DNA of 63,681 nt, the filler included. It is 15 parts of 15 records of this genome, joined end to end, with 100 filler letters (N's around TTAATTAATTAA, not from the genome) between each part and the next. Parts side by side here need not be neighbours in the genome. Positions count along the whole stretch, not along the records: positions 15,266 to 19,411 come from SRR15195285_11919; positions 19,512 to 24,121 come from SRR15195285_11927; positions 24,222 to 27,245 come from SRR15195285_11936; positions 27,346 to 33,158 come from SRR15195285_11978; positions 33,259 to 37,475 come from SRR15195285_11995; positions 37,576 to 42,148 come from SRR15195285_12005; positions 42,249 to 45,336 come from SRR15195285_12010; positions 45,437 to 51,480 come from SRR15195285_12011; 7 more parts are not named here. One strand, given 5' to 3'. Shown here one piece after another: positions 15,607-51,298 of the stretch. The notes under the pieces were generated by a model. It saw only the letters and a list, made by a program, of their open reading frames with translations. It did not search any database and was not told the origin of the DNA. How positions within the stretch are numbered: position 1 is the first letter of the stretch; the number at the start of each line of letters is the position of its first letter. A program made the translations under genes and the position numbers.

Positions 15607-17626
15607 ATGCTGCTGCACTTAGCTGTGCTTCTCGTCGCCGCGACTTCACCGCTGCGGATTACCTCAGCCGCGACTCCAGCTGTAGACGGCGCCCCGAGAG
15701 GCTCCACGGGAGCAGCGGCTGAGGCTGCCGAGCAGGCCAACCCCACCCTCGAGTTTCACTCAAACGTGACCAACCTGTGGGGCGACGGCCCGTTTCCCTC
15801 GCAGTGGGTCCTGTCGCTCTCGAATGCGACGGCAGACCTCGCGGCCTGCGGCGCCCTCTGCGCCAAGTACCAGGCGCCTGGTCCTGCCGGGCCGCCCAGC
15901 CGTTGCCAGTCATTCACGCGCGTGACCGCGACTGACCCCGCCAGTGGGTTTCGAGTGCCGCCAGGGTGCTACGGACATGTCGATCCGGTCTGGCTGCCGC
16001 TCCCCGGTGTCGATTCCGCCACTGGTGTGGCCATCGCTGGCTCTGGGCTCGTTGTCCGCCCCTGTGAGTCGGCCTTCGACTGTTCGCACAATGGCGCGTG
16101 CACTGCCGGCGTGTGCGAGTGCACACAAGGCTGGACAGGCCGCAAATGCGAAAGCCTCGACCTGCTGCCTGTTGACCGCGCCAAATACGGCTTCAGTCCC
16201 ACCGACAAGCTCGGCCAGAACCTTTCGTCATGGGGTGGCTCTATCCTCACCGAAGGTGGAGTCTGGCACATGTGGGCAGCTCAAATGGTGAACTACTGGT
16301 GAGAAAACGGTGTTTCCCCCCACCTTTTCTATCAAAATGATCAGTCTAACCAAGACAGGCTAGGGACAAACAGGGGTGAAACTCACGAAAAACTGTCTAT
16401 TCAGCGGCATCATTCAATGGCAGCAGAACAGCAAGATTGTTCACGCGACGGCGCCCGATGTGCTGGGTCCTTACACTGAGCAAGAAACCGTGGCTCCTGT
16501 CTTCGCGCACGAACCAACCGTGACGAGAGATCCGCGGACGGTAGGTGAAACGACATGTTTCGTTTTGATAGTTCTCTGCGTTTCACCAAGACATATTCCG
16601 GACGCGAAGCAAAAACTGATAAAAGGATGCGCCGCGTTTTCCCTACCGTCCGGCAGGGCGAGCTGCTCATGGTCCACGTGGCCTTTCCCGTGGACGGCGA
16701 GTTCTCGAATCAGTCCGTCTTCAACGCCTCGATGTTCTGCAGCTGTCCTGCCAACTGCACTCCATCCAGGGCAGGAGGTCAGGTAAGAAAACGGCAGGTT
16801 TTTTGCGCCAGTTAATACGAAAAACCGAACATTTGCCAAGACAGTTTCGGGACAAGTATAGAGGAAACTTGAGAAAAGACCCGTTGTCTCGCAGTGCAAG
16901 CCCAACTGCCCAATTCCCCCCCAGTACGGCCCCAAGGGTCATAAAAGCTATCATCCCTTCCTACCGATTGTGCGGACAGCGTCGAGCGCTGCGGGGCCGT
17001 GGACGGAGGTAGTGTCGCCGGTCCTCGATCAAGGGGACAGCAACCTCGCGTGCTGGATCAACGGGACAGGTGGGCTTACTTGCAACGGTAGAGGGGGCAC
17101 AACGTCAGCCCTCTCGACCGACTGGTGAGTGCTCAGCGCAGCTTGCGTTGCCTCGTGCGCGCGCGCGCACGCACCCGATCTGACCCTAATTGCTGCAAAA
17201 TTTTCGTGGAGCAGGCGTAATCTATCTTCGTGGCTGGACTTCAAGTCAGATGGTCGCCCGATGTGGGTGTCATCCCACCCGGACGATGAAGACCCAATGC
17301 TGTGGCAGGACATGGAGACCGGCGTGTTCCACAGCATCCAGCACAACCTCGCGGTGTGCCCAAGGGATCAGCCTTGCCAGCTCGGCACGCATCAGTTTTC
17401 ACTCGACGGCCTCGAGTGGTTCCTAACGGGGGCGGCCTACACCAACCAAGTCGAGTACACGGACGGGAGCAGCCACCTCTTTGATCGGCGCGAGCGGCCG
17501 CACCTCGTGTTTGAGGAGAACACCACGCGTCCTATCGCACTGTCGAACTCGGCAAGGCCGGGCGGGGCAGACGGCGACCGCACCTTCACTCTCGTGCAGG
17601 GCCTACGAACGAAGCCAACTGCCTGA
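15607..17626 (+). CDS. Secreted PAN + EGF-like + five-bladed beta-propeller (GH43/GH32 clan-like) protein; 4 introns
   Basis: Signal peptide; EGF CSHNGACTAGVCECTQGWTGRKC; SSWGGS, WHMWAAQM, FAHEP, EDPMLWQD, RRERPHL. Introns 16299-16404, 16541-16656, 16783-16894 and 17125-17214 restore one continuous frame. Confidence 0.75.
16299..16404 (+). mobile_element. Introner-like intron, family A copy 1
   Basis: GT-AG intron of 106 nt starting GTGAGAAAACGG with core CCAAGACAGGCTAGGGACAAAC; splicing gives NYC-GIIQW. Confidence 0.72.
16541..16656 (+). mobile_element. Introner-like intron, family A copy 2 (more diverged)
   Basis: 116-nt intron with core CCAAGACATATTCCGGAC and inverted ends GAAACG...CGTTTT; splicing gives DPRT-GELL. 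Confidence 0.6.
16783..16894 (+). mobile_element. Introner-like intron, family A copy 3
   Basis: 112-nt intron GTAAGAAAACGG...CCAAGACAGTTTCGGGACAAG...CCGTTGTCTCGCAG with imperfect terminal inverted repeats; splicing gives AGGQ-CKPN. Confidence 0.72.
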
Positions 17627-18474
17627 CTTGCTTTTTAAAACTGAAACTCTCGTATCCAAACCTGTGATGACACGAGCACAATAGATCGGCGGAGATGCAA
17701 GCCATCACAATAACTGGTGTAGTGCTGACGTACTGACCAGTAAAACCACGTTTACATTAGGTCTCCTCGAACACATTAGGAGTCATACCGTGACGCAAGG
17801 ACATCGCCATCCCATAACCAGCGATCCCCCGAACCTTGACAATTCGCACAGGGTTCCTCCACCTTAGGCACCTACAGCACATCATCTGACACCCCAATCG
17901 CCAGAAGTAAACGTGAAAGAAGCAAACACATCATACACTCAGCCATGTCCACCAGGACTTCTGGGCGCACCTGCGGTCTGGGGAATCACTGAAAATTCGT
18001 TCACAGAGATACGAGACGAACATCTAAGTCAAGAACAGCTCCAAAAAAATCAAATGCAATAGCAAGGTACAGACATACCTTGCTTAGGAAGCGGTGAGCA
18101 CTGATCATCCAGGCTGGCGATTGCCAGACGAGGAGAAAATAATCACTGAAAATTGAGGTGATCCCGCTGTGACAGCGGGCGAAAGGCCTTCCTTTTGCGC
18201 GATGTGACATGCTTGCACGAGTCTTAGTCATCCATGGGTGATGACCTTGCACTGCTACCACCTCTATCCAATTGGTTCATGACAATTGCGCTGGCGTTCA
18301 ATGCATATCTGCAAGTGTTGACGCCGGAGTTAGACTACAGCTCATAATATATTATGGTACGGGTGGGACAAGTCGCGGGTCTTTCGGGAGGAAACGTGTT
18401 AGTGAAACGTCGGTTTGGTTCTATTGCCACGACACTGTATCCTAGGCGTCTGCAGCAGCTGCTCTTCCATGGAA

Positions 18475-19227
18475 CTACTTGGGCTTGTAGAGACAGCCAG
18501 TCTGGTTTACGCGCAGCAAGACTGAGGGGTCGAACCCGTTGCCTACTACATAAGCTTCGATGATGTGCATCAGCTCGCTTTCGTCCATGTCCGGTGTCTT
18601 CGAAAATATCCACAAGCCAGAGTGATTCACCCCCTCCCCGTTGACGCATAGTGCGCCACAGTCGGACCCGTCTTGGTTTGCTGTGCATGGAATGCAGCGA
18701 CCGAACGCCTCGTACTCGTTTGATGAGCAACCACGTGGCCCTGCCGCTGCTGTCTTCGGCTGGCCGCCAGCAATTACAGCCCAATCGTAGCCTGGACCCG
18801 AGCCACCGGCCGCAATGACCCAGTAGGGTCCATATGTAAAGTGCGGCAGAAATTTGGGGCCGACCTCCAACTTTGATGGAAACTCTGCGTTGGGAATGAT
18901 CGCCTGCAGCGTGTCACCGCTGTCGCTCACCTTTCCGTTGACCCTGTCGCTGTTGGCGTAATTGTGCACATCAACAGATGTTGCAGAAGTCTGGTTGTAC
19001 TCCGCTGTGACGCAGTAGATCTCATCTTTTGGCAGGTACACGATTGGCTGCTGCGCCTGCACGTACCACCGGTGTGCCACGAAGTCCTTCACGCTAAAGG
19101 GTGCCATCGTGCGCACAGGGCGACAAGCAACCGTCGAGGTAGTCGCTGACTCCTCCGGGCGCACTGCTGGCATACCCACCACTACCGTGATCATTGCAAA
19201 TGCAAGCAGCCATCCAGCGACCGCCAT
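18475..19227 (-). CDS. Secreted lipocalin (Blc/ApoD/TIL-like) with a Cys-rich insertion
   Basis: Signal peptide; SCR1-like HRWYVQAQQP, GPYWVIA, YDWAVIAGGQP, SCR3-like GLWIFSK; no introns. Confidence 0.8.
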   Translation of the reverse strand: MAVAGWLLAFAMITVVVGMPAVRPEESATTSTVACRPVRTMAPFSVKDFVAHRWYVQAQQPIVYLPKDEIYCVTAEYNQTSATSVDVHNYANSDRVNGKVSDSGDTLQAIIPNAEFPSKLEVGPKFLPHFTYGPYWVIAAGGSGPGYDWAVIAGGQPKTAAAGPRGCSSNEYEAFGRCIPCTANQDGSDCGALCVNGEGVNHSGLWIFSKTPDMDESELMHIIEAYVVGNGFDPSVLLRVNQTGCLYKPK

Positions 19228-19380
19228 GCTTCTATCCTCTGCGCACTGCGATTCTCAGCTCGCTCCTCCCCGCCCGGACTCCTGCGGGTTATCCGGACTG
19301 TCGATTGTGGAGCGTACGCGTCGAGTATTAGCTATAGCTGCACGCTGTCACGCGCGGCTGTGTGCTCCGTCGCAGCGTGC

Positions 19381-19411
19381 GCATGCGCCAAACGAGTCGA
19401 TCAGACTGCAG
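19381..19411 (-). repeat. Dispersed upstream element CTGCAGTCTGATCGACxCGTTTGGCGCATG (copy upstream of lipocalin)
   Basis: Reverse complement of 19382-19408 matches 42249-42275 at 26/27 positions; contig ends inside it. Confidence 0.8.
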
Positions 19412-19723
19412 NNNNNNNNNNNNNNNNNNNNNNNNNNNNNNNNNNNNNNNNNNNNTTAATTAATTAANNNNNNNNNNNNNNNNNNNNNNNNNNNNNNNNN
19501 NNNNNNNNNNNAGACAGACACTTACTTCTACCTTTCCCTCATCATTTTGGGTACCAGTACCGAGTTCAGGCTACGGTTTTACAATATGATACCTGGGGCA
19601 CCCAATGAGAACACAATGTTACAGAGTTACTATGATAGTAGCAGTTACACGCATGCAACCATGGATGCAAAAGATGGCATGCATATACGCACCGGCGTAG
19701 CGTGCCTGGGGGAACGAACGGAG

Positions 19724-20870
19724 ATGAGCATGGTTGGCTCGGTGCTGCGGGTGTGCTTCGGGCTGACGCTGGCGGTGTTCATGCTCGTGAATTGGCTGGT
19801 GTGCAGGCTGTTGCTGCTGTGCTCGTGCATCTCCGAACGGACGAGGAGCGGCTGCGCGCTCGTCAGCTCGCAGCTCGCCTTCGGGGCGACGCTGCTCCTC
19901 TCGCCGTGGATATGGATCACGGCCGAGCCGGGCAAGGACGAGATCTGGGCAGAGATTCAGAAGCAGCTGGACAGCGACGACCCCCGCCCAGTGTTTCTGC
20001 TCGGCAATCACACCTCGTTTATGGATACGTTGCTCACCGTCGGTGAGCGCATCTGCCCCGCGCTTCCCTCCGTTCGTGGACTTCAGCTGCCTGACCTCCC
20101 GCCGACTGGCCGCAGCAAAAATGCCTACTCGTATCGTCTATCGGTCACGCACGTACATGGCGGACTATTTACTCAATATGCCGATCTTAGGCGTATGCAT
20201 CCAGGCAATGGGACACTTCCCAGTCGCATTCAAGGGCAAGGCTGACGGCGACTTCTCGGTGGACAGAGAAAAGATGGCGCAGACACAGCTTCGTGTGGAT
20301 AACCACATTCAATCCGGAGGCATTTTGTGCTTCTTTCCTGAGGGGCAGCTGAATGTTAACCCGGCAGAGATTATGGTATGCACTGCTGATCGCGCGCTGG
20401 GCTGACTGCTCCGGTTGCTGCTCAGACCGCACTCTGCTCACCTCGTCTGCACCCGCCTTATTCGCAGCCATTCCGATACGGTGGCATCAAGGTCGCCCTT
20501 CAAAATGATGCTATTCTGTATCAGTTCACCACCACTGGCTGTCCAGGTCCGTGTATAGCACAGGGGCTCACTTCCGTGGCCTCCATCGCAGACTCACGAC
20601 AGAGGCTGGCTGTGGTGTTTGTCTGCAGCCACCTGGCCAAGGAGGGCGCAGGTCGGAGGGTTCCCAGGCCCAATTCGCTACGGAATCAGACCAATGGCAC
20701 CGGAGGGTACCAAGAAGCTACTGGCAAAGCTGCGAGCGGACTGCTCTGCAGCAGACTCTGAGAAGGCAGACGCTGCTCTTTTGTCGGAGCATCTGCGAAA
20801 CGAGATGCAGAAGTTCTACGATGAGCTCGCCCAGAAGAATGGTACTGGCGCTGAGAAGAAGGAAAATTGA
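19724..20870 (+). CDS. Lysophospholipid / 1-acylglycerol-3-phosphate acyltransferase (LPLAT, PlsC-like); spliced
   Basis: N-terminal TM segments, catalytic HxxxxD motif GNHTSFMD and FFPEG motif spread over intron-separated ORFs. Confidence 0.85.
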
Positions 20871-21796
20871 GCCATCTCCAACTGCTGTAATCTGTCCAGA
20901 CCACCCGCGTACAATCATGTCGATGTGCTCGAAGGTGCCTAACGGAATTCACACATTGATACGGTGGCTACTCTAGCGGTCTGTCCCAGCAGCTGGCGCG
21001 CCGTCAGACCAAGTGTAAACTCGATTTGAGACCTCTGCCCAGTAGTATCCATCTATCTATGTTTTGGGAGCTGTATCCTAGATACCCTAGTGCTCTACGA
21101 TAATATGGCGCAGCACTGTCGCTTGCAGCGCACAATTGCGACGCTGCATCCGACAGGGCATCTCATGTTGCTGCCCTGGCGCTCTGCGCTATCGGACACC
21201 AGCGGAGACAAAGTGCCCAGATGTGCTCTTCTTACCATGCCACCGGACTGCGCGCGTGTTGTCGACACGTCGCGTTGCTGTGGCGGAGCGAGGCAGATTC
21301 AATGCGGCGCTGACTAGCTTGTGCAGCGGTTTTGCCGTGCCTCAAGTGACCGTACTGTCGCCGTCTTATCGCTGCCTTATATCTTACTACTACACCTTTC
21401 CCATCCTCGATGCTTCCTCGTTACCTTCTGTTTCTTGCTGCCTCCCGATATGTGAATAGATGAAATGTTTTGGGATCCCCATTAATTTTTCTTAACCCTA
21501 GGCCCTCTCTTTGAAAGGCGCCCCTGGGTTGTGTATTGTTCTTGAGCGGCAGCGGCAGGCTGGGCCAGCCCAGGGCGGATGCCAACGCTCATGCTGGCAG
21601 GCTGGGTCACATGTTGCGTGGATTTCTGTACTAGCCAGACGCAGAGGCAGGTGGAGGCCGATGCGACGGGACTCTGGTGCAGATGCGACATACTAGTAGA
21701 TCTGGTCTCAACCGAATGACTCAATCAATCAGTTGTCTGTCTTACACCTCTTCCAAATCAATCGACAGCTCTGAGCGCCAGACAGTCAGGACTGTG

Positions 21797-23856
21797 TTAC
21801 GAGCCAGCGTGGCACATGTTGAATCGCAATCCGGAAGTCTTCGGTCCCGCTTGCGAAACAGCGAGGATCTGCAACATTGAGAAGCACGTGTGGCAGGACA
21901 AGATTGCTGCACGCTTGACCTTCCCAGGCATTGTTCTGCGATAGCGAACGGGGGCGACGTGGCACGGTCGGCATCAGGGCAGATCAAATCACGCGTGTAA
22001 ACCACACAGATGTCGCTTCAGCAGAATGACGGCCATTTCAGGAAGGAGTTGGGCGCTCACCCTGCAATTTCGGGGCCATCCTGATCACAGACTGTTAAGG
22101 CGAGCGACGATCGGAACTCTGCACCAGGCTCTGCCGGCATCTGCGGCCCAGGATCCTCTTCTTCTTCAGGCACAAAGTACGGCAGAGAACGCAGCAGACA
22201 GTCCGAACAGTAGATGACACCGCACACGCGGCAGTGGTGACGACGATTGAGCAAAGAGAAGATTGACTGGCAGCATGCACACTCGGTTGTAGCTGCCGCA
22301 TGAATAGAAACCACGAGATCCACTAGTTAGTTTCTCCGACAGTGTGTGAAAAATCGCTGTGCTTTTCCGAGCAACAGCTCAGCGCGAGCGGCTAGCACAC
22401 TGAGCAGAGGCTTGGTTTGGCTTGGCTGCGCACACGAATCGTTTTGCCATTCTTGGTCTCGTAGATGTTCGACCGAGCCGGTGAAGACAATATCAAGCGC
22501 GGCACCGTAACGCGCAGAATCGAAACGAAGCTGGCCTTCCATCACTCGGCCGCATCCCGCCTGCTCAGGCGACCAGCAGCAGCACACGCACGCAGGGACA
22601 CACGCTTGAACAACAGAAAGGTCCCTGTAGCTTGAAGAGTGGGTACAGAAATTGTCATGAACGCACATGAGCGCCTCCCTCGTCCTCGACTGATGTTCCA
22701 GCCCCTGCCTCCCAGCCCAGTTGCTTGACGACTGCAAGCTCACAATCCAGGCTCGTGCAGTAGTATGGAGCGTGGCCGCCTGGCACCGGTCCTTCGCCAA
22801 AGCCAGACTTTGACGCTTCATTGTCGAACGTGTTTGCGTTCTCTTCGGCCCCCGCAAGATCGAGCTCGGCGAGGTCGCCGTCGCTACCTTCCACAAGCTC
22901 GACTACCTGCCCAGAGCCAAATTCGTCATGTTCTACATCGTCATCCACATCACCGCCTAGGTCAATCACTGTCTCCGCCTCAGTCTCAGCACTTCCCGAG
23001 GCCGTGCCACACATCAAACGATAGTTGCCAGCATCATCCATGCTGCAGCCACCGCACGTGCAACCGCGACCAATGCGCGGCTGCGCAGCCGGCTTGCGTT
23101 TTTGTGCAGAAAAGGACGTCGAGTGTGCATTGTTATCCAGAGAGCCGAGCGGAGCGCGGCCGCCGCGGCCAGTAGTTCTCGCGCCATGTGGATCATCAGC
23201 AGCGTCTTCATCGGTCCATAGAGACTGGATGACCGGGTCGTTGCCGGACTGCGTTGCCGCACGCGGCGCGTCACGCAGCAGCTCGCCTGGGTCCATCTTC
23301 AGCGGGGACTTCACCGACACGGCATCGCCGCGTAGCCGGCCAATCTCCTCATCGCGCGCCGCGAGCAATTCGCGCAGCTCAGCCGCATCTGTCTGCTGTC
23401 GCTGCAGTGCGTCGAGCAGCATTTCGTGCTCGTCGGGGCGGATCACACTTGCGCCCACGCTGGCGTCAGGGCCGCGGCTGGCCGCGCCCGATTCTCGCAT
23501 CGCGTCCAGCTCGCGATTCGCTGTGCGGAGCTGGCTCTCAAGCTGGCGGGTCTTTTCCTTCTGCTTCTGCAGCAGTTCTGCAGCCTTAGCTGCGTTGTTG
23601 AGCAGCGCCGACGTGGCCTGAAGCTCGGCCGTGAGCTTCTTGTTCAGCTTGCGAGCCTTCCCAAGCTCCTGCGCAGCCCGCCCTCCAATTCAGCACACGC
23701 ACAGCCCAGCCCACCAGCCCACACACAAATACAACGCACCTCATTCGCCGCCTCCAGCCGCTCCTCCCCTTCCTTCCGCTGCCCACGCTCCCACCGCAGC
23801 GCGTTTGCGAAGCGCAGCGCCTGGTTGGTCGCCACCTCGGCGGCATCGGTCGCCAT
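21797..23856 (-). CDS. Coiled-coil protein with C-terminal FYVE zinc finger; spliced
   Basis: WxxD (EWQND), CACCQSIFSLLNRRHHCRVCGVIYCSDC, and after the intron starting at 22060 the last pair AILSCHTCF; stop at 21797. Confidence 0.78.
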
Positions 23857-24567
23857 CCCCTTGCAAGCACTGGCACCACAGCGACTGACTGCCTATCGCT
23901 GGAACTTTGCTACCGTTCGCTACGCCGACTACCCGGGTACCGCGCTACCGGCTACGTGTACTGCATGATTATACGAATCGTCACCCACGCGAATATTATC
24001 GATGAGATTTATGATCCACAGTATCGTTGAATCGGCGTGAAGCAGAAACGTTTCATAGGAAATTACCGAGTTAGAGAGTGTTTGGTTTTGGGTTTGGCAA
24101 AAGCGAGTTTGGGCATGCAGGNNNNNNNNNNNNNNNNNNNNNNNNNNNNNNNNNNNNNNNNNNNNTTAATTAATTAANNNNNNNNNNNNNNNNNNNNNNN
24201 NNNNNNNNNNNNNNNNNNNNNAAACTCCGGCGCTTGTTTATTCATAGTAGGCTATTCGAACGAAAAGAGCTGAGGTCATCCAGGGAGGTCGATTCTTGAT
24301 CAGTCACTAGTCAGTGATGTACTATCAATTGTAATCATCCTGTCGTGTACATGTGACACATGTACACCCTGGCGTCGCGTCTTCAGAATGGTACTATTTT
24401 CCAGTACAAACTGCACATATATTGAAAACACATATACCCCGGCGCTTGGTTTCTCACGAACTGCGTACTGTGGACTGGGGTGAGTGGTCGCCGTGTTTTG
24501 CATCACCCCCATACTATTGACTGGGTTTAGTGGTCGCCGTGTTGTTTGGACGACAGGCAAGAGGACG

Positions 24568-33461: not shown

Positions 33462-35854
33462 ATGGAGTGGTCGCTGCCATCCCTCCTGTATGTCAGTGTA
33501 TGTATCATGGCGGCCGCTTCATCTCCTCACGGTGGGGGCCTGCAGCAGCTGACCGGCGGCGTCCCTTTTCCCTCACCGACCACCGTGTAAACACCACTCC
33601 ACTCAATGATTCACCACCATCAGTGCTTGTGCTTGCCATTCACGCTGGCATACGTCTACTATGAACAAATGGTTCGCCAAACGTCAGCTGCCCTCCTGCT
33701 TCCACCTGGTTTAGATGTTGTTGGCTCGGAGCAGGTACCCGAATACGCCCTGGCCATTGCCGAAGCAGATGACAATGGGTGAGCAGACGGTTGTGCTGGC
33801 TCAACGATTGACGTTGTCCTGTGACACCGCTCCTGGGTGTGACCCAGCTGCGTGTGATCCCAACGGGACCGTCAACAAAGCTGTGACCCGCTATGAGCCG
33901 ATCTTGTCTCCAGCCCGAGCACCGTCGCCGGACAACAGTGAAACCATTTTAGACAAGATCCAAGTGTGCGTTGACGATGCTTCCGAGGCACTGGGTCCGG
34001 AGATGAACGAAACCCATGCATTGTCTGTTCCTACGGTATCGGGAGAGCCCGTGCAAATAACTGCTGCGTCGCAGCACGGTGTGTTGCGGGCTTTAGAATC
34101 CCTGGCCCATCTCGTTTCGATCTCACACCCCGGCCGCATCACTACCGCTCCCGTGGAAATCACTGACAGCCCTCGTTGGGGCACGCGTGGTGTGCACGCA
34201 TCCGTTTAGCAGCCATAGTTCTAGCTACATTCACCATGCTCAGCGGCCACCCTGAGTGGTGGCATGTCCCATGCAGGGCTCATGGTCAATCCAGCTGGTC
34301 GATTCATGTCCGTTGCATTCTTGAAGCGAGTTGTAGACGGGCTGGTGGTCAACAAGATGAACTACCTCCACATCCACTTTACAGACGTCAGCTCGTTTCC
34401 GATCGCCTCCGATACTTACCCACAGCTGTCGCGAAAAGGCCGGATCTCCCGACTGGTGTGGAAAAGCTCTGACACCGACGCAGTTTACGCCAAGGCGGAG
34501 CTGCGTTCCCTCGTTGCATACGCAGCTGACAGGGGGGTCAGAGTCGTTCCGGAGATCGAGTAAGCTGTCGGCATCCTTGACCGTTCCACAAAGACGGTCG
34601 GGACCTTCGTTTTGTACTTTTGGTGGCGAGGGTCTCATTCGTTCATCTCGTATGGTGGTGGTGGTGCAGTATGCCGGGTCACGGAGCTTGGAACTATGGC
34701 ATGCCAGAGATTTGTCTCACGAGCTGCCCGTCTGTGCTCGACGTAACTCAGGCCAAAACCTACGACGTCTTGACCAATTTTCTGGGTGAGCTAGCCGATG
34801 TATTTCCAGACCCAGTGCTGATGCTCGGGGGTGACGAGGTCGGGCTGTCCTGCCATGACCCAGCCACTGGAAAACCATTGCTTTCGACCGCATTCGATTT
34901 GGATCTGGCAGCTGCGGCGCGGATGAAAACTTTGGGGATCAACAGCTCTACCGCAACAGATTACTTCTGGCGTCAGATCTCTGGAAAAGTAATGCAGTCT
35001 AAAAAGCTCAAGAACAAAACGTTGCAAGTCTGGTACTGCCCTGACTGTCACACTGGCGATCCACCACTTGAGCAGATGCCGACGGCAACCGTGGCTGATG
35101 TGTGGGGTGCACTCGACTACGCTGCAACTGCGTGCAAGTGCGCATAATTATGCAATCATGCATGGAAATTTCCGTATCTGTTAATTGTAGGCGTGGCATT
35201 CTGACAACATTACACGGTCGTAACGCTTTTTGTAGGTCTGGTTACCGGTCCGTTATGTCAATGTCACGCGGACCTAACGTGACCCGAGGCGAGGGTGGAA
35301 CCGGTTGGTATCTCCCACCATATGGCGGAACGGATGGTGGAATTTGGCCCGGTACGTGGCAGCGAGATCTGGACGCAGAGCTCGGGTCGCGTGGCTGCGA
35401 CAAGAAAGGGCGTGACACCCTGGTGATGGGTGGGTCGGCTGCAGCATGGTCATCGGACTCATCGACATTCGAGTAAGCAGCTGTTGGAAGTCTAACTCTT
35501 CCGCAAAGAAAGCCGTTAAATTTCGTTCTGTTATTTTGCTGGCGAGAGGCTAAGTTGTACACGCGGTACGGTTGTAGCTTCTATACGTGGTCAGGCACTA
35601 TCGGCGTCGCAGAACGGCTGTGGGTTGGCTCTGGCACGACTGGTTCGGATGTGTTCAACCTCACTAATGCCTTGCCAAGACTCGCAGTGCACGCTTGCCG
35701 TATGAAGACCAGGGGTTTCACTGTTTCACAGTACGCGCCGAGCACCTATGCGATGAGCGGAATGAGCCACTGGTGCACTGGAGGAGCGGGTGGCACAGCC
35801 ACGAACGGCAATTTGTGCGCTGCGTGTCCCGCCGAATGGGACTGGCCAGTTTGA
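33462..35854 (+). CDS. Secreted GH20 beta-N-acetylhexosaminidase; 5 introns
   Basis: Introns 33587-33734, 34190-34276, 34560-34669, 35138-35235 and 35473-35577 give PWPLP, DSPRW..RGLMV, NKMNYLHIHFTD, VVPEIDMPGH, catalytic LGGDEV and AERLW. Confidence 0.9.
34560..34669 (+). mobile_element. Introner-like intron, family B copy 1
   Basis: 110-nt intron alignable along its length with 35473-35577 (shared GTAAG, CTGTyGG, TTCCrCAAAGA, TTCGTTyTGT, TTTTGsTGGCGAG). Confidence 0.65.
35473..35577 (+). mobile_element. Introner-like intron, family B copy 2
   Basis: 105-nt intron similar to 34560-34669; both are phase-2 introns placed directly after TCGA. Confidence 0.65.
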
Positions 35855-42148: not shown

Positions 42149-42248
42149 NNNNNNNNNNNNNNNNNNNNNNNNNNNNNNNNNNNNNNNNNNNNTTAATTAA
42201 TTAANNNNNNNNNNNNNNNNNNNNNNNNNNNNNNNNNNNNNNNNNNNN

Positions 42249-42278
42249 CAGTCTGATCGACGCGTTTGGCGCATGTTG
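42249..42278 (+). repeat. Dispersed upstream element (copy upstream of sialidase)
   Basis: CAGTCTGATCGACGCGTTTGGCGCATGTTG at the contig start, about 70-100 nt before ATG 42347. Confidence 0.8.
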
Positions 42279-42346
42279 CGCGCGCCCCGCCCGCGCGCGC
42301 GCGCGCGGATCGAGTCCGTCGCGCGGCCGGCACGCATCGCAGCGAG

Positions 42347-43528
42347 ATGCTGCAGCTCTTGCTCCTGTTCGTCGCGGCACACGCCACCGTGGCGACGGCT
42401 CTGCGGCAGCCCACCGCGGACACCGTCGTCTTCCGCGCAGGCCAGCACGGCTACCAAACGTACCGCATCCCCGGGTTCGTGCGGGCCACGAACGGCAGCC
42501 TGATCGCGCTCGCGGAGGGTCGCGTGCGCATCAACGGGCCTCAGGTCCCGTGCCACGGCTGGCGCAACAATACATGCTGCTACGGCAAGCCCGCCTCGGA
42601 CTTCGATGGCCTCTGCTACGACAAGGACATCGTGCTCAAGACCTCGCGCGATGGGGGCCGGAGCTGGGGCTCCCTCCAGATCCTGACGCAGTCGAACGCG
42701 AGCCACTACTACTCGAACGCGATCGGTGTGACGGACGCAACGACAGGGCGTGTGTGGGTCCTCTTCTCGCGCTGCTCTGTCGCGCGGGGCTACAGCGGCT
42801 GCACCGATCGTTGGGTCTACTCCGACACCCACGGTGAGTCCTGGTCCGCAGCACCGGAGGCGGATGCGCAGGAGCACGGATCCGGTCTGTCAGGGGTCGG
42901 ATCCGGCATCCAGCTGCGAAGCCCGGGCCCGCACCACAACAGGCTTCTCTTCGCGAAGGGCCGCGCTGTATTTTCGGATGACGATGGGCGGCACTGGACG
43001 GCTGCCACTTCCACCTTCGGGAGCAGCGAAGGCCAGATCGCGGAGCTGGCAGGCGGAAGCCTGCTCGCGGCCGTCCGCTCTGGATGGCAGCCCGGCCTGC
43101 GACGTTCCACGGACGGTGGCGAGCACTGGTCTACTGGCTACCAGCTGGATGGTACCGGTGGTCACTCCAACGTTACTACGGACAACTGCGCGCTGAGCAT
43201 GATCTCCGTTTCTCCCGCGCTCGAATACGTGTTGCTTTCGCACCCGAACCGCCCTGACATCGGTCCGGCCGACGACATTCGCGCGGGTCAGCCCATCGGA
43301 CGCCAGAACGCCACCGTGTCGATCGCCCGAGTCGGCACAGGTGGCCATCTCGGCACCTTCGTCGACTATGTCCAAATTTACGCGGGGCCGAGCGCTTACA
43401 CGAGCCTGGGTCAGATGGCCGACGGCGAGTGTGGGGTTCTGTATGAACGCTCGGCAGTGGGGGCGCTGCCGGTGCACTTCGATTCGCTCAACTACGCCAC
43501 CTTCCCGTGCGCGCCCTTGGGTATCTAA
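42347..43528 (+). CDS. Secreted GH33 sialidase/neuraminidase, intronless
   Basis: Signal peptide MLQLLLLFVAAHA; YRIP; four Asp-boxes (SRDGGRSW, SDTHGESW, SDDDGRHW, STDGGEHW); SEGQ Glu, AVRS and GRQN Arg, AYTS Tyr nucleophile, LYER. Confidence 0.9.
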   Translation: MLQLLLLFVAAHATVATALRQPTADTVVFRAGQHGYQTYRIPGFVRATNGSLIALAEGRVRINGPQVPCHGWRNNTCCYGKPASDFDGLCYDKDIVLKTSRDGGRSWGSLQILTQSNASHYYSNAIGVTDATTGRVWVLFSRCSVARGYSGCTDRWVYSDTHGESWSAAPEADAQEHGSGLSGVGSGIQLRSPGPHHNRLLFAKGRAVFSDDDGRHWTAATSTFGSSEGQIAELAGGSLLAAVRSGWQPGLRRSTDGGEHWSTGYQLDGTGGHSNVTTDNCALSMISVSPALEYVLLSHPNRPDIGPADDIRAGQPIGRQNATVSIARVGTGGHLGTFVDYVQIYAGPSAYTSLGQMADGECGVLYERSAVGALPVHFDSLNYATFPCAPLGI

Positions 43529-43956
43529 GGGTTGATCTGCCTCTCTTTGTTGGCAACGTTGGGCCGCTGCTATACCACTGGTGTCATCGGCATATCAGGA
43601 TCATGATTGTGTGTTCGAGCTACGTGTGCAATGAATCTTGTTTGTTTTCAACACATGCGCACAAACATCCATTGAGTCTGGCACTCAATAAGATTTGCGC
43701 GCAGATTGTTCTTCCCGCCAGATGCTTTCAAAATGGGGATTGTGCTTTTTTTAAGAGTACACAACTGCTCTGGAGAGTCCATCAATAGACGAAACACAGC
43801 ATGGAGTGAGTGATCTATCGATGCTGTACTGTACGGTACGATAGCCGTTGCCGTACAGCCAAGCACATGGGTTGACAATAATTGATTGCATTCATTTCTC
43901 AATAACGCAACTCAGTCTCACCTTTGCCAAACACTCTGGCTTACGTAGCACTGATC

Positions 43957-45063
43957 TTACTGACTCTCCGCTTGTTCAAAGACTGTCAGCGCGGTAAATG
44001 CTGTGGTGTATGGGGTGGTCTCGGGGATTGCCTTGGTCGGATAAGGGTACCAGGTCTCTACCATAATCGCATCCCAACCATGGTTTCCACTTATGGCACT
44101 AGGCACCGTCCTCGCTGCCCCCTCCCAGTCCACCATTGTCCCTTTGTGAAACGCCTCTGCAGAGCTCTTGCCACCTACCTGGCTGTTAAACGTCTTACCT
44201 ACCTTCAAATCGAGGTCCTTCACTAGCTTAACAGCCGCTGCTAGCTTCTTGTAACCACTGCCTGCTGGCCCGGGTGTGCACTGTGGAGTAGGGACTGGAG
44301 ATACGCAAGGAAAATTTGCCGAGTACTCCATCGGAGAATCAGCCCAGTACCCTGTCAGCTTCACGCCTTTGGCGTTCATTGCGGTAATGAGCTGGGAAAG
44401 GACAGTCCCCAGCTCCATATCGTAGTGGCTGGGTTTGTTTGCCGGCCACTTGTCACCAACTCTGTAGTGAGGCAAGGCGTCGTACAGGTAGAATGCAGTC
44501 TCATTGCCGAGCGTGGACTTCAGCCTGCCAGCGAAGGCTGCCACCTGTTCCGCTGTCTCCGCATGCGTCTGGTTCCTGCATGCGGCAGTCGTCCGCGAGA
44601 AGATGCTTTCGAGCATGAAGTGAGACACCGTGCCCCCTGCCGTGAGGAACGGCCCGAGAGTCTTTGTCAAGGTGCGCTCGGCCGTGCTTACCCCTGTGCC
44701 AGCGCCACATAACGCTCCTCCACCCTCTATACTTATCGGTAACCCGATGCTGCGTGAGACTCGAGCCAAGGTCGTTGATTCGGTCGGGCTCAGGTCGGCG
44801 AAAGCCATCTGACGCAGGTGGAGCGCTCCACCTCCCGGCGACGCCTCCATTTTGCTCCGCAACCCGTGCCACTGCTTGAGTCCCTGTGGTGATGCGACGA
44901 GGCCGTTCACGAGCGATGACAAGAGTGGTGCCTTCAGGTTTGCCGTCGGTCCGAAGAGCAACGTGGGAGTGACCGTTGTTGGGGATGTGTCATTCTGTAA
45001 ACCTGCGTTTGCTACGCCTGCGGTAGTAGTCAACCAGACGAATGCCTTCGCTACCATCCACAT
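43957..45063 (-). CDS. Secreted hypothetical protein, possible TIM-barrel hydrolase
   Basis: Intronless ORF with hydrophobic N-terminus from ATG 45063; alternating beta/alpha pattern (ISIEGG, FMLESIF, YLYDALP, YWADSP, MVETWY). Confidence 0.55.
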   Translation of the reverse strand: MWMVAKAFVWLTTTAGVANAGLQNDTSPTTVTPTLLFGPTANLKAPLLSSLVNGLVASPQGLKQWHGLRSKMEASPGGGALHLRQMAFADLSPTESTTLARVSRSIGLPISIEGGGALCGAGTGVSTAERTLTKTLGPFLTAGGTVSHFMLESIFSRTTAACRNQTHAETAEQVAAFAGRLKSTLGNETAFYLYDALPHYRVGDKWPANKPSHYDMELGTVLSQLITAMNAKGVKLTGYWADSPMEYSANFPCVSPVPTPQCTPGPAGSGYKKLAAAVKLVKDLDLKVGKTFNSQVGGKSSAEAFHKGTMVDWEGAARTVPSAISGNHGWDAIMVETWYPYPTKAIPETTPYTTAFTALTVFEQAESQ

Positions 45064-45436
45064 TTTCGATGACGGGTACACTCACCTATGGCGGCTCTCG
45101 TTTGTCCCGTCGTGCGGCAGGCCCAGTGGGACCCGGCGCTGTGGAGTACGTACAGTACGTAGAACTCTACCAGCACCGACCCGTGCGGCGGCGAGCGACG
45201 CACGACCGCGCGCGCGCGTCCTCGCACATATTCGAATACCTCGGTATGTGTACACAAAATGTACATGCATGTGTTACGCGACCGAAGAGCTCTCGAGCCG
45301 AAGAGCTCTTCGATCGCTGCTCGAAATGGTCCAAGANNNNNNNNNNNNNNNNNNNNNNNNNNNNNNNNNNNNNNNNNNNNTTAATTAATTAANNNNNNNN
45401 NNNNNNNNNNNNNNNNNNNNNNNNNNNNNNNNNNNN

Positions 45437-46092
45437 GGAAGCAAAGAAGACACCGATTAAAGACAAAACAAAGAAGGAGGAGAAACAGAAACCGATGCCC
45501 CAGAAAAACTCGATGGGCGCATCTCCGCACATGAAGCTCGGTGGTGCCAACAACCATGTGCACGTGCTGCTCAAATCTGATATTGTGCGCGACGAATGAT
45601 TGAAGCCGCCGAAATCTTGTGCGCTCAATTCTGTGGCTGAACTGATGGTACTCGTGTATGTGGATGGCATCTGGGTGCACAGGACAAGCTCAAAGCCCGC
45701 GCAGTGAAGCAGGGCGTTCCGGCGAAGGATGTGGCAGCTGCAAAATCCAAGGAAGAGGTTGTGGCACTCTTGTACGAGTACAGGTAAGAAATGGAACGCA
45801 GCCTTATGCATTGATTGCAGCCAGGTGCTCGTCCTGATGGAGATATTGTGTTGCACAATTACGTAGTGACGAAGCTAAGGAAGCGGGCACACTGGGGAAG
45901 CCGTCGACGACCTCGAAGGAGATTCGCGCGGCCAAGTACGACACAAATCCCATTGATCCGGCTACTGGAAGGACCCGTATATGGCAAGCCACCGTGGATG
46001 CGATCAAAGATCCTGAGGAGAAGGCCCACGCTGAGGCAAAGTATCTTAAGCGCGATGCAGAGATCGCGAAGGGTAAGAAGGACGAATTGTGA
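45437..46092 (+). CDS. 3' fragment of an ER-lumen protein ending in KDEL, with a small SAP/HeH-like helical module; spliced; missed by the ORF track
   Basis: Exon KLKARAVKQGVPAKDVAAAKSKEEVVALLYEY, GTAAG intron at about 45784, last exon ending AAG AAG GAC GAA TTG TGA (KKDEL-stop, stop at 46090-46092). Confidence 0.55.
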
Positions 46093-47058
46093 AAGCAGCA
46101 ACGTTCGGCTGCAGCGTTTCCACGGTTCTGAAGCTTAATGATAGTACGATTGTAGTATAAAGCCCCGCGACGGGATTGGCCGCTGCACTAGTGTAGCAAG
46201 TCCATTGCTCGCATCAGCTTTTAGATTCGCAGAGCGCCCAAACAGTTTCCCCAAAGTATCATGCAGCTGTATAGGACTTGAACAGGCAAAACGCCAGATC
46301 TGGCGCCTCTCTCACGAGGGGTGGATTGTATCATCATACTCATCTGCTATCAATAGTTCAATAGTAGCGGAGCACGTTACATGCAAATCCGACTCCGATG
46401 TGTGGAGGTTTGACTTCGCCGGGCGGTGAAGCTGAATGCCATCGCTATTAGTGAGCCTGCGACGGCGGCTGCCCTGCCTATGGCATACAGTACGCTATGC
46501 AGCGGTTTTAACAAATCTTTCAAAGGCGCGTTTGAAAGATTTTGTCTACTTGAACTCCCATGTTCCATCCCTTTTTCGAATATCCGCGCGCGCGTGCGTA
46601 CATGTACCGTACGCGTCGCCGGATCGAATCGAGAATTCTCACTCAGAATTTCTCAGAACTCTGCGGATCATCTCGAGTCGCGGAGTTTCTTCGCGTTATT
46701 TCTATTGATCTCGAGAGAGACCTATAGAATCAATTCTATGAAAAACTCGGTACCACTGCTCAGCGCTGTTGGGTGCTCAGCTTTGGGGCAACAGATCAAA
46801 CGTCGCACTATCAGATCGAATACGAGCGGCAGCAGCTGGGAACGGCACGATCGTAAGTCTACAGAATACGACCTTCGGTGAATGCCATGGAGCTCCAGCA
46901 GTATCGCCACGATGGCCTGAGGGACTAGAACAGCAGCAGGGCGTGTCGCAACAATGATTGCATTATTAGCAAGCGAAGTAGTTTCTCAGCTGTATGGCGT
47001 TGTGTGGCATCATTGTACTACAATAAACACTACGTTGTCAGAACGATTACGTGCATAC

Positions 47059-50000
47059 TCAGTGTGTACCCTCGTCCACAATGATCTTCCATGTGCGCAC
47101 CTCCATAGGTGCAATCGTTGCTATCCCTACGTCGTCAGATCTTCGAAAGCCCAGCTGTGCTTCTGAAGTCGCACTCCTACTCGCATTAGTCACCTGTTGC
47201 TGCTTCCAGTGTAGCCGCGACACCTCACGTTGCTGGAGGGTCATCGAGCCAGAGAGTGTCATCTCGACCGCGCTGGTGATTCTCCAATGCGGCGCGAATA
47301 GATTAGCAAGGTCAATCTTCACTGGCTTGCCAAGTGTGCTAGACTGCCCACCGTCGCCTGCCGCAAACAGGTGGCGCAACCGCAAAAGCATGACTGCGGA
47401 ACCAACTGGTGGCGCTGGGTGTGGCTTCGTCGTTGCATTGTACTGTGTGTCAGGTTCGTCAATCAACGAGATATTCATCTGCGGTGGCAACATTTGGAGA
47501 GAGAGCAGCTCCAGCTGAGGAGGTAGTGGAGTCGAGACAGGCGAGCTTGCTGCACAATGGCTGCTGCTGGTAGCATCGACAGTGGTAGCCACAGAGCTGA
47601 ACAGGACAACAGGATTCGCTAACGCAGCGGCAATTGGCCGGACGGAAGCAGCAAGTTCTAGACCTTTTGCGTCGCCTGTGTCGCTGAGCACAAGTAAATT
47701 GTGTAGTGTGACCAGATGATTGTCAGTGGAGTTGTCGCAATTGGGTCCACTTGTCTGGGACGGGTCGAGAACCGCCCTGTTCACCATCAGTTCCATCGAG
47801 CCATCAGCCATTGACGCAGCTCCCTGTGCGCTACCGACCACAGCCGAGAGAGCAGGGGCACGACCAGCTTTGCCAAGATCCGTCGAGGGCAGAATTGCTG
47901 CTAGCGTCGCCGGATAGTAATTCGAAGCGACGGGCTCCTTCGCATTGATCCATGGCCCAACCTGCCACGGTCTCTGATCTCGCTCGCGCGCGATCCACTC
48001 GAGACCGTTCGAGTCTGTGAGCATGCGCGTCCCAGAGCTAATGTTTGTATCTAGCCGCAGAATTACATTCTGATCGAGATGATGGGATACGTCAAACGGC
48101 CCCGACGAAACCCAGACGTGCGCGTGCTTCTCGTCAGCATAGAGGCGGTAGCAAAGAGTCACCCCAGCTGCTGCATCGATCGATACAACCACCTCTGAGA
48201 AGAGCGGCCCTTCCATGACAGTGGCCTTCGCAGAGCGCTCGCCAGGGAACGGTACTGCAGAGTCGCCGCCTCTGCCGTTCGTAGAAAAATCCCAGCTGTT
48301 CTCGGTTTTTTCAGTGGTCTGGTAGGTGAGCACGCGAGCGGTGGCCGTGATTGTTGTAGCACCAGCTGAAATCGTCTGCAGTGCACCAGACTGATTGAAT
48401 GCGAGCTGCATTGCTTTACTCCGCAGTACGGTGCGATCACCTGAGAGTGGCCTAGCCTGAACATACTGGCAACCAGTAGCTGCAGAATTACTCGCCGGGT
48501 CGATGGAAAAGTGATGAAGGCCAAGTGGCAGCAAGTTTGCCTTGAAAGTGAGCAGCACTGCGTCTTCAACCATATGCGAAGGGGACAGCTGACACCTCAG
48601 GCTAGATATAGTTTGATTATTGGCCACGGCTACGGACAGCCCAGCTTTCGCAGCTACAGATGGAACAAGTAGTTCCACATACTCGTCCCGAGCGTTCATC
48701 TGCGGATTGTAGACAGAGATGAGAGTGGACTTGCCACCTGAAAGCGCAAGCTTGACCCTGTCGCAAAGCTTCCCTGTTGCGTTCACGCACGGAGACATCG
48801 CAGTGGATCGGACCTCGCAGCTTCCGAGCTTCGTGGCCGCTGCTGAAGCAACGTTCGAGGCCCTCTCGATTCCGTCTTTAAGTCGGTTGGTGAAATCATT
48901 AGACACAATCCCGAAGCCATCACCTGGAAGTGCATCATGCGCTACTGCTAACCCCATCGCCTTCCATATTGGCAGCAGATCTGCAAACTGTGTCATCCAG
49001 TGCTCAGCATCTCTCTGAAGCGCATGTACCTGCTGCGCAGCGCGCCATATCGAAGACGAAGCACGCACAAGCGCCTTGAAACCAGGCCTACTCGTGAAAA
49101 AGCCTGACCAGGGAGCTCCCATCTCATCGCCGATCAGCGGTAGCATATCCCACTCCGCCGGCCGCGGGGGAAACTCGATCTGTTCTTCGTTCAGTGCCTT
49201 GGCAAAACGTGATGGCGTCGAGTACTGCGCGCGGATGCCTGTGCTTAGTGTGCGCTTGTTGATGGTGTCTAGCGCTTGATCCAGGCCTACGTAAACAGCC
49301 TGTGCGTCCTCCCACCGATGGTCGTCTCCGAACATTATCACGACGTTGCTTGCAGTGGGGTGTGCAGTGGCAACGAGGTCCTGAGCAAGTAATATCAGGT
49401 CGTCTGCAACAGCCTCCGGATTTGGGTTCAGCAGATTGCCATGGTTAGCGCGATACGGATTCCAGTAGCCCGTTCTCTGCTCGTGTGTCAGCATCGTATG
49501 CGTATCATCCTTGCCCTCGTCAGGGAAAGACTTCATAGCGTGCCACAGCGCGGCTGTCTGTTGGTTGATTGGATCTCCCTCGGTCTCGCCACGCCCAAAG
49601 CCATAGAAGTCGAAACCGGCTTCTCTGAAGAGGTACGCTGCAGTGGAGGAGTGGCCAAAAGGATCAGGTTGCCAGGCAGTCTTCACCGCCGACCAAGGAC
49701 TGTCATCGTAATTGACCACACTCTTGAGCCACAGGTGACCAAGACAGAGATTGTCCACCTGATCTTCAATGCGCGAGCATGCCTCATCGTGCTGCGTCCA
49801 TCCGCCTCCGGTCCACTCAAGTCGTCCTTCTTTCACTAGTTGACGCACAGTGTCGCGCTGTGTTGTATTGGCGTCTTTCCACCACATGTCATAGAACACC
49901 CCTATCTCGGGAGCGAAAGTGCGTTGCTTGCCAGCGGCGACTCCAGCAATCATCTGCGTGATCAGCGCACCGATACCGGCACTTGCAGCTGGGCTTTTCG

Positions 50001-51298
50001 GACCTTTGTCGTTTGAGTTTGTGAATCCCTGCGTGCCCTTGTACATTGCCTCTACTGTGTACAGCCAGCCTGGGTCGAGGTGACTGTGTGGTACGATGTG
50101 TACGGTCACATTCGGCGGTGGTGACGCGACTTCTCTAAACCACGCCGGTCCACCTGCCGTCCCACCATTGGTGCCATCCGCATCGCGCCAAAAGATGGCG
50201 TGGCAGCGGTCTTTGACCGAGACAACGCCCATGGTTGGCGTGGGCGGGGGTGCTGGTGGACCCGGCTTTGCACACTCTTCCTTTTCGCACCACAGGTTCT
50301 TGCACCCGCCCGAAGATGCACACCAGTAGATGCGCCTGCAGTCTTCATCGAGAGTGCCGGTCTGTTGCCCGCCGCTGTTGAATAGTACCTCTACCTTCTG
50401 CGTCGGGACATGAAGCGTGCCAGTGGCAGACTGCCAAGATGTACAGGGCGAGCCTTGGCCCTTGATGCAGGTAACCGTGAAGTTGCTCATGGTCGGATCT
50501 CCGCCTCCATGCTCCGCAACCGTATAATGCTCCCCGCCTACGCGATCCAGGTACCAGTGCGAGCCGAGCAGCGACTTGCACTGCCCTGGGCTCCGCTTTG
50601 CGCGCTGCCACAGCGCCTCGGTGCCCGCCAGGGTCACGGTGCCGTTCATGTGTGGTTCCTGCCCATACAAAGGCATCCAAATCACTGCACTCTCCCCTAT
50701 AATTCACGCCCCACCGCCCCACCGTCCTCCCATGCAAGCACTGCCACGCACCATGACTGCAGTGAGCGTGGCATTCGGCTGCGTCATGCACCCACCGCTC
50801 TTGCAGGCCACGACGTACTGACCGCTCGTGTGCCGCGACACATCGTACCTGCCCACACAACGGCATACAATCACTGCCACTGTCCCATACAAATTATCCT
50901 CCCATACAAACCACTGCCTGCATCCCATACAGGTCGCTGCCAGCCTGCCATACAAATCAACGCACCTCGAGAGCGTCCCTGGCGTCACCGAGGCGATGTA
51001 CTGCCGCGAAGGGTTGACGTCCGCCATGCGCCAGGTCCTGACCATACAATGCTATACAAATCACTGCGCTGGGACGCACAAACCACTGCACTTCCTCCCA
51101 TATACGAATCACTGCCACGCTTCCCATACAAACCACTATGCTCCCTCCCGTACAAACTACCGGCAGTCCCCCCGGATACAATTACAACTGTACTCCCTCC
51201 CGTACAAAGCACCGCACGCACCCTGAGAGGTCCTCGCACTCCTCCGCCACCGTGCTGCCGCCCACCAGCGTGAGCAGCAGCCACCTCATCATCATCAT
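47059..51298 (-). CDS. Secreted GH38 (lysosomal-type) alpha-mannosidase with extra N-terminal modules; 3 introns
   Basis: Signal peptide from ATG 51298; introns 51038-51221, 50849-50965 and 50659-50751; VHIVPHSHLDPGW, GGWTQHDEA, nucleophile AWQPDPFGHS, WSGFFTSRP, AHDALPG, ASNYYP, LLRLRHLF. Confidence 0.9.
50659..51221 (-). mobile_element. Three introner-like introns, family C, built from ~20-27-nt tandem units (50659-50751, 50849-50965, 51038-51221)
   Basis: All start GTGCGT, contain variable numbers of GCAGTGrTTTGTATGGGA-like units, and end GCAGTGATT(T)GkATrs..TTGTrTGGkCAG; splicing all three restores the frame. Confidence 0.72.

Follow-up and report, generated by a model that had tools for sequence, protein, structure and literature searches.

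How do introns that resemble one another come to lie close together in one gene when no further copy is found in the other genes sampled? This question is raised by a window (the whole stretch of DNA analyzed, 63,681 bases) that consists of 15 unlinked contigs (3.0 to 6.0 kb each) from an uncultured marine protist, joined by 100-nt spacers (runs of N around "ttaattaattaa" at 3379-3478, 7833-7932, 11613-11712, and 11 further joins). Each of three genes, gene A on contig 5, a GH20 gene on contig 9, and a GH38 gene on contig 12, carries its own family of similar introns, here called families A, B, and C. The similarity is confined to the introns, the copies are lineage specific, and they are clustered in single genes. 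We consider it probable, if well short of certain, that each family consists of paralogous spliceosomal introns that arose by duplication within the same gene, the whole intron being copied without flanking exon. The mechanism of copying we infer, and two routes are candidates. The origin of new spliceosomal introns is a long-standing open question, and to our knowledge there is no natural case in which an intron has been shown to arise by reverse splicing into a new site.

Three genes with families of similar introns

The window genes are eukaryotic and have short GT-AG introns. Judged by reading frame and homology, the segments of families A, B, and C are predicted to be spliceosomal introns. 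The features of gene A are as follows.

15607..17626, plus strand: gene A, a secreted protein with an EGF-like domain (5 exons, 531 amino acids)
16299..16404, plus strand: intron A1, 106 nt, phase 2, whose removal is needed for the frame
16541..16656, plus strand: intron A2, 116 nt, phase 0, a weakly supported member of family A
16783..16894, plus strand: intron A3, 112 nt, phase 0, a member of family A
17125..17214, plus strand: intron A4, 90 nt, an older shared intron outside family A

A single open frame of 531 amino acids was obtained only once A1, A2, A3, and A4 had been removed. The Pfam model EGF_Teneurin matched exon 1, and the proteins of relatives mapped exon by exon. Family A thus comprises three of the four introns. 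Both A1 and A3 begin GT[AG]AGAAAACGG, and the placing of A2 in the family is further supported by a shared 8-mer, CCAAGACA, at mid-intron.

33769..35854, plus strand: GH20 beta-hexosaminidase gene, modeled with 5 exons (561 amino acids)
34190..34276, plus strand: GH20 intron 1, outside family B, in no high-scoring pair
34560..34669, plus strand: intron B1, 110 nt, phase 2, after TCGA
35138..35235, plus strand: GH20 intron 3, between B1 and B2, outside family B (shuffle z to B2, 2.7)
35473..35577, plus strand: intron B2, 105 nt, phase 2, after TCGA

Matches to the Pfam models Glyco_hydro_20 and Glycohydro_20b2 fell within single exons of this gene. Once spliced, the model regains PEID-MPGH and GVAERLW across B1 and B2, stretches that we take to be conserved in GH20 enzymes. 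A preliminary description of this DNA had credited the gene with five introns, two of them in family B; the two family members stood, and the total came to four introns modeled after the ATG at 33769; a fifth may lie upstream of that point.

47059..51298, minus strand: GH38 lysosomal-type alpha-mannosidase gene, 4 exons (1281 amino acids), with a signal-peptide-like start
51038..51221, minus strand: intron C1, 184 nt, phase 2; GTGCGT, about 6 to 7 units of a 23- to 26-nt repeat, then TTGTATGGTCAG
50849..50965, minus strand: intron C2, 117 nt, phase 2, built like C1, with no in-frame stop
50659..50751, minus strand: intron C3, 93 nt, phase 0, built like C1, with an in-frame stop

Pfam placed the GH38 N, middle, and C domains in this gene. 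The plan common to family C is GTGCGT, 3 to 7 copies of the 23- to 26-nt tandem unit, and then TTGTATGGGCAG or a close variant. As the preliminary description had reported, the three introns are packed at the 5' end of the gene (within 563 nt as measured here), and the remainder is one intron-free exon of 3.6 kb. Removal of C1 to C3 joins the signal-peptide-like start to this exon; since C2 has no in-frame stop, its intron status rests on homology. The C region was recovered again in an independent DNA run of another study (X4 records 23-26). The C2 region (50826-50942) occurred in two variant forms in a DNA run from a different study, which also had a variant of C1 and the promoter region (50913-51466) that differed by 12 substitutions and 13 gap positions. 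In natural populations the region of intron repeats is thus polymorphic.

Contig 12 also carries, at its left end, a small gene with two introns (45585-45682 and 45784-45866, plus strand), and a metatranscriptome contig (X16 record 17) confirmed that both are spliced. In the three RNA runs compared with contig 12, no RNA contig joined across C1, C2, or C3, and 50689-50890 was without RNA cover.

Similarity confined to introns and to single genes

Intron and exon pairs were scored by Smith-Waterman alignment, with z-scores taken against 2000 shuffles. Global percent identity was unusable under lenient gap penalties, under which unrelated introns gave an "aligned identity" of 0.73, and local BLAST identity was used together with z. 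The shuffle z was 15.9 for B1-B2, 6.7 to 10.8 for the C pairs (10.8 for C1-C2 and 10.7 for C2-C3), and 7.6 for A1-A3. The pairs A2-A3 (3.8 to 4.9) and A1-A2 (2.1 to 2.4) were weak, and A4 showed no similarity to A1, A2, or A3 (-0.8 to 1.0). Local identity was 66 to 67% over 98 to 108 nt in family B (66.7% over 108 nt; E = 5.5e-6), 62.6% over 329 nt and 68% over 116 nt in family C (E down to 7.8e-9), and 71% over 42 nt for A1-A3; E for family A was 0.014 per query and 0.78 window-wide. These E-values are window scale and would be weaker against a whole intron set, and the threshold in use for introners is E < 1e-5. We regard A2 as a probable, if weak, member of family A.

To place these pairs among all others, a set of 29 introns was assembled from the 8 family introns and 21 more. 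Introns called by the gene finder were kept only if predicted in both runs (a low intron penalty gave over-prediction, a high one merged introns), and curated introns were added. The dozens of other introns mentioned in the preliminary description therefore shrank to the 21 that could be called robustly. With splice-site ends trimmed, the five top-scoring of the 406 pairs were all same-gene pairs, of which the set holds 24 (hypergeometric p = 4.7e-7). The probability that 3, 2, and 3 related introns among 29 would fall into single genes by chance is about 5e-7.

No copy of any family was found by BLAST elsewhere in the 15 contigs, and the best nonmember hit in nhmmer searches with the family hidden Markov models had an E of 0.16 to 1.1. 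A search of viral contigs with a 21-base pattern of family B gave 0 matches. The families were also mutually unrelated (cross-family z, -1.2 to 2.8). Within-gene-only similarity, which the preliminary description had claimed at these coordinates, was thus borne out across the 15 contigs by both the shuffles and the 406 pairs; "confined to one gene" means, at most, absence from about 60 kb of unlinked sequence.

Two other ideas about the families were tried and dropped. Families A and B as one superfamily were rejected, the pairwise z being at noise (-1.2 to 2.8) and the A model missing B; the motif AAGACNG..GGGAC matches A1, A3, and B1 (3 versus 0.19 expected) and was built after those sequences had been seen. 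A structured RNA or small nucleolar RNA was rejected because the families had no Rfam match and no significant fold; the z-scores of the eight family-intron folds against shuffles ran from -1.96 to 1.02, with B1 alone marginal (-1.96).

In alignments with 20-nt flanks, the similarity extended from the 5' to the 3' splice site in the same orientation and stopped at the exons. The only upstream exon sequence shared was TCGA (4 nt) at B1 and B2 and CTCTC at C1 and C2. None of the nine exon pairs around the copies showed similarity (shuffle z, -1.0 to 1.2), intron phases differed within families (2, 0, and 0 in A; 2, 2, and 0 in C), and relatives carry single-copy sequence collinear with the exons between copies. 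Successive copies were separated by 72 to 136 exonic nt in families A and C and by 705 nt in family B.

The copies were also regularly spaced. The 5' splice sites of A1, A2, and A3 were 242 and 242 nt apart, and the 3' ends of C1, C2, and C3 were 189 and 190 nt apart; the length of source intron plus intervening exon was constant in both families. For distances uniform on 150 to 400 nt, the probability of an exact match is about 0.004 and that of a match within 1 nt about 0.012, for a pattern that was noticed post hoc and for which the intron end to be measured was chosen by the analyst. Stepwise copying at a fixed distance, proceeding downstream from A1 in gene A, would fit the constant spacing. 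The many indels since copying make exact spacing odd, and the regularity is unexplained.

Such spacing is also what tandem duplication of exon plus intron, with periods of 242 and 190 nt, would leave behind, and one BLAST alignment at the 190-nt offset spans 329 nt, exons included. This account is largely refuted by the dissimilar exon pairs (all z < 1.3), the differing phases, and the exons that match single-copy sequence collinearly in relatives. The shuffles and the 406-pair ranking exclude chance or compositional resemblance for B, C, and A1-A3; the statistically weak membership of A2 would lend itself to such a reading. Taken together, duplication of this kind and chance are the least credible of the explanations that we considered.

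Family positions in relatives

Presence and absence of introns were read from database open reading frames (ORFs) called on unspliced contigs of relatives. Since ORFs of relatives run uninterrupted across the positions of A2, A3, B1, B2, and C1 to C3, most copies are lineage-specific gains. Intron gain, for which the preliminary description had proposed ortholog alignments as a check, is thereby supported at these seven positions; A1, occupied in many relatives, does not follow the pattern, and B1 is shared with one close relative.

In gene A, the A2 site was uninterrupted in all 11 DNA-type relatives covering it. The A3 site was uninterrupted in 4 of 4 (P0002, P0003, P0045, and P0048); a fifth, P0009, is ambiguous because its sequence ends there. 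Exons 1 to 4 were read without interruption and without A1 to A3 in P0002 (78% identity) and in P0003 (65%), the latter taken from a single-cell genome assembly, and both ORFs end at "..TDW," exactly where A4 starts (GTGA). Because they stop at A4, these two sequences are DNA derived, share A4, and lack A1 to A3. They belong with the window, P0001, and P0004 to a supported clade (98/100), two members of which therefore lack the family introns.

The A1 position was occupied in nine relatives from two clades and empty in others, with an ORF break or start exactly at the site in P0001, P0004, P0008, P0011, P0013, P0014, and P0043 to P0045. Since relatives in two clades carry an intron at this position, A1 appears to be an older intron and is probably the founder of family A. 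A2 and A3, 136 and 262 exonic nt downstream of A1, would be later copies, seen only in the window's lineage. Two of the relatives with an occupied A1 site, P0004 and P0014, are 100% identical across about 55 residues read through from the intron at this position (16299) and across about 20 codons upstream of it; elsewhere in exon 1 they are far less alike (80% identity over the whole 172-residue alignment). This identity could reflect chimeric assembly, recombination, or a recently moved intron.

In GH20, metagenome locus L001 (95% amino acid and 84% nucleotide identity) has B1 in the identical position, and B1 thus predates the split from this relative; P0022 and P0023 lack it, and the B2 position was uninterrupted in P0030. 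B1, its L001 ortholog, and B2 were about equally alike (Smith-Waterman scores of 22, 28, and 24), which suggests that the B duplication is roughly as old as the split between the window and L001, or else that a few motifs are constrained. GH20 intron 1 was 67.8% identical to its L001 ortholog. Overall, exons of the window and L001 were 84 to 90% identical and orthologous introns only 62 to 68%. Because introns decay this fast, the copies must be younger than the 70 to 79% protein divergence from relatives that lack them. With local identities of 62 to 71%, the family introns are older, diverged copies.

In GH38, the N-terminus aligned to P0040 and P0042 gap-free at the C1 and C2 junctions. All three C introns are missing from these two relatives, the ones in which the region is covered, and they read "..LSR|Y.." without C2. 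At the C3 site, P0042 was uninterrupted and P0040 had a 4-residue gap beside the site.

Introns appear to turn over quickly in this group. Within about 25 codons of gene A (around 16270-16440), the ORFs of relatives break at six different places (break points include those after GVWH, NY, CGIG, CGIGQ, GIGQW, and EQNS); breaks also occur in GH20 exons 3 and 4, and in-frame insertions are present in P0023, P0024, P0032, P0037, and P0045. These scattered breaks suggest a hotspot for introns specific to single lineages, and very rapid turnover, with the proviso that some may instead be frameshifts or chimeric assemblies.

The same comparisons bear on whether the introns were independent gains, or old, and were made alike only afterward by intron gene conversion or by selection on gene-specific motifs. 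The short blocks shared about equally by B1, B2, and the L001 ortholog would be expected under such a history, and the regular spacing might reflect constraint. Conversion, however, needs prior similarity, and the many indels and the 62 to 71% identity are unlike converted tracts; no significant RNA structure or Rfam family points to selection, and relatives lack the intron positions altogether. We therefore regard later homogenization as very unlikely.

Contigs and species

Gene confinement could be an artifact if the contigs came from a mixture of related species, each with its own dominant intron family. The 15 contigs are unlinked, close relatives (65 to 95% identity) are plentiful in public data, and the database search gave an identical protein for contig 12 (P0039) and only 88 to 95% matches for contigs 5 and 9. 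G+C content (0.55 to 0.63), intron length, and splice signals are nevertheless alike across the contigs. Other genes on the same contigs lack the family (contig 12 has the two RNA-confirmed introns and contig 9 has one intron), and the older introns of the family genes themselves (A4 and GH20 introns 1 and 3) are unrelated to the families. A mixture does not explain why neighboring genes on the same contigs carry no family introns, and we find it highly improbable.

Contig 12 was matched in seawater and marine metagenome runs (19 rows, 14 studies). The labels of the relatives' proteins are presumably in the style used for Picozoa single-cell assemblies. A literature search on Picozoa and introners found no paper.

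A more serious competitor is that the families are dispersed genome-wide, as introners or as elements like miniature inverted-repeat transposable elements (MITEs), and hop locally or insert repeatedly into an accessible gene, the 60-kb sample missing the rest. Relatives of gene A and GH20 are broken at many positions, as with very active intron gain; family C is made of tandem units, like many short mobile elements; and surveys, in the part of one source drawn on here, find introners disproportionately common in aquatic lineages (PMC9860276). Target-site duplications were nonetheless not seen above control (junction slide of 0 to 4 nt in the 8 family introns and 0 to 3 in 21 controls), nor were terminal inverted repeats (best 12-nt inverted match of 4 to 9 and of 5 to 9 in the 21 control introns); the known signatures of DNA-transposon introners are thus missing. 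No copy was present in genes neighboring the three family genes or anywhere on the remaining 12 contigs, and the three genes hold three unrelated families, where a burst would be expected to put one family into many genes. The clustering within genes would still need a local mechanism. With no copy outside the host genes in this sample and no such repeats, the label "introner-like" given in the preliminary description was not upheld, and we judge dispersed families to be unlikely.

Other features of the window

Besides GH38 and GH20, Pfam matches included GH31, a BNR domain, an ABC transporter, and EF-hand and cNMP proteins. Microsatellites of GGAGCC or GCN lie at several contig ends (11713-11739, 37576-37623, and 54919-54945) and are probably assembly breakpoints. 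The right end of contig 5 (19353-19408) and the left end of contig 11 (42307-42249) are 75% identical over 59 nt in opposite orientation and may hold a dispersed repeat. Imperfect palindromes of 30 to 112 nt (70 to 93% self-complementary) were found at 43044-43146, 62297-62336, 57348-57381, 46513-46542, 45278-45317, 55578-55633, and 63601-63640, the last overlapping the one Rfam match in the window, a weak mir-4536 match below threshold at 63544-63618 (35.5 bits; gathering score, 76). Two direct repeats lie in coding sequence: an uncharacterized one in an ORF of contig 14 (55274-55436 and 55451-55628) and one within a region of two cNMP-binding matches on contig 13 (51812-51940 and 52188-52315).

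Candidate routes of copying

Local propagation, as already proposed in the preliminary description, is the best-fitting reading, with similarity confined to introns, dissimilar exons between copies, and relatives without the copies. A source intron would have been copied whole to one or two further sites in its own gene. By the first route, the excised intron would be reverse spliced back into the nascent transcript it came from, at a site close by, and the transcript would then be reverse transcribed and recombined into the gene. By the second, break repair or template switching would use the nearest intron as the source of filler DNA, and in coding sequence only copies of a whole intron would survive, being removable by splicing. 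We lean slightly toward reverse splicing because the homology ends at the splice sites and the junctions carry no repeats. The TCGA at B1 and B2 and the CTCTC at C1 and C2 are ancestral exon sequence and could reflect either microhomology or a preference for certain targets, two readings that so small a sample does not separate.

Several observations count against same-gene duplication. The window samples only about 60 kb of the organism, and copies could lie in unrelated genes elsewhere. No RNA junction was seen for the family introns, the RNA contigs having been compared with contig 12 only. One RNA-library contig (X14 record 8) extends 22 nt past the 3' splice site of C3 into the intron, and position 51184 within C1 is covered by another; either could represent pre-mRNA or DNA carry-over. 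It is conceivable that the sequences of P0040 and P0042 come from spliced RNA assemblies. The similarity among the introns is low (locally 62 to 71%), and the about equal similarity of B1, B2, and the L001 intron is also compatible with common constraint on a handful of motifs. The A2-A3 pair, sixth in rank (z = 4.9), was tied with one different-gene pair, which leaves A2 near noise, and the 406-pair set was drawn partly from a crude gene finder of our own making. Finally, two separate clades have an intron at the A1 position and others have none, which means either loss or recurrent gain there too.

The few known and very rare same-gene intron duplicates are the best circumstantial support for reverse splicing. 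A lineage with duplicates in 3 of about 14 sampled intron-bearing genes would change that, and genome-wide density is the key point. Fast turnover and the many close relatives in seawater metagenomes would let the order, source, and target sites of copying be read, and such comparative data would test RNA-mediated against repair-mediated models. A bolder proposal, possible but doubtful in our view, is that copying to a nearby site in the same gene is a main route of intron gain in this lineage, with a ruler-like step, measured from one and the same end of the source intron, of 242 nt in family A and about 190 nt in family C. If so, the copying rate would lie orders of magnitude above the handful of cases in fungi, nematodes, and Oikopleura, and the step would point to co-transcriptional reverse splicing or a chromatin-phased process. 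Such copying would be missed by standard introner pipelines, which require copies in unrelated genes; surveys that ask for at least four unrelated genes discard gene-confined families by design.

Comparison with known systems

The class of fungal similar introns known as SGDs (same-gene duplications) was reportedly first described by van der Burgt et al. (2012), the Oikopleura dioica intron pairs are said to come from Denoeud et al. (2010), and intron gain by double-strand-break repair in Daphnia is reportedly the work of Li et al. (2009). A working definition of introners, as given in the excerpted text of Gozashti et al. (PMC12130899), calls for all-versus-all BLAST E < 1e-5, similarity reaching the boundaries, and at least 4 copies in different paralogy groups. 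The window families reach the exon-intron boundaries in the same orientation and do not extend into exons, and they have no copy outside the host gene in the 15 contigs. Introners of Micromonas, Aureococcus, dinoflagellates, and fungi have many copies in unrelated genes, many with target-site duplications or terminal inverted repeats, according to the portions of three sources used here (PMC9860276, PMC12130899, and PMC3879977). The window introns resemble them in being lineage specific, at new positions, in sense orientation, homologous up to the splice sites and not into exons, and from a marine protist. They differ in being confined to the host gene within the sample and in lacking, in all eight family introns, the target-site duplications or inverted repeats, either or both of which mark MITE-like introners.

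Intron gain by double-strand-break repair in Daphnia leaves short direct repeats at splice sites and unrelated filler, as described in the part of PMC3514964 available to us. The window introns likewise point to a local DNA event instead of a mobile family, but they have no junction repeats and the inserted sequence resembles the neighboring intron.

The closest parallels are same-gene duplicates. As an idea the mechanism, which the preliminary description called unusual, is not novel, and such duplicates have already been described in fungi, Caenorhabditis elegans, and Oikopleura, to go by the relevant passages of PMC3609843 and PMC3879977. In O. dioica, which has very fast intron turnover, reverse splicing was given as the origin of the four near-identical same-gene pairs in a total of about 75,000 introns (PMC3879977, in the section consulted). 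The window copies, too, share one gene in a lineage with fast turnover, and they are older (diverged) and far denser. In fungi, SGD introns are similar to copies within one gene only and have no special secondary structure, and half of the cases lack duplication of the flanking exon and were read as intron transposition within the same transcript, as stated in the excerpts drawn on (Collemare et al. 2013, PMC3609843). The same excerpts describe them as near-identical and rare, with 82 members in 24 species and no more than 16 per species (PMC3609843). Like the nonsegmental SGDs, the window's introns are similar only within the gene, in the contigs sampled, and their flanking exons are unduplicated. 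Unlike the near-identical fungal introns, the window copies are only 62 to 71% identical locally, include triplets, and amount to 8 of 29 introns in 60 kb. Same-gene intron duplication is a known but rare class, and here it is unusually dense, the 8 of 29 sampled introns falling in three genes.

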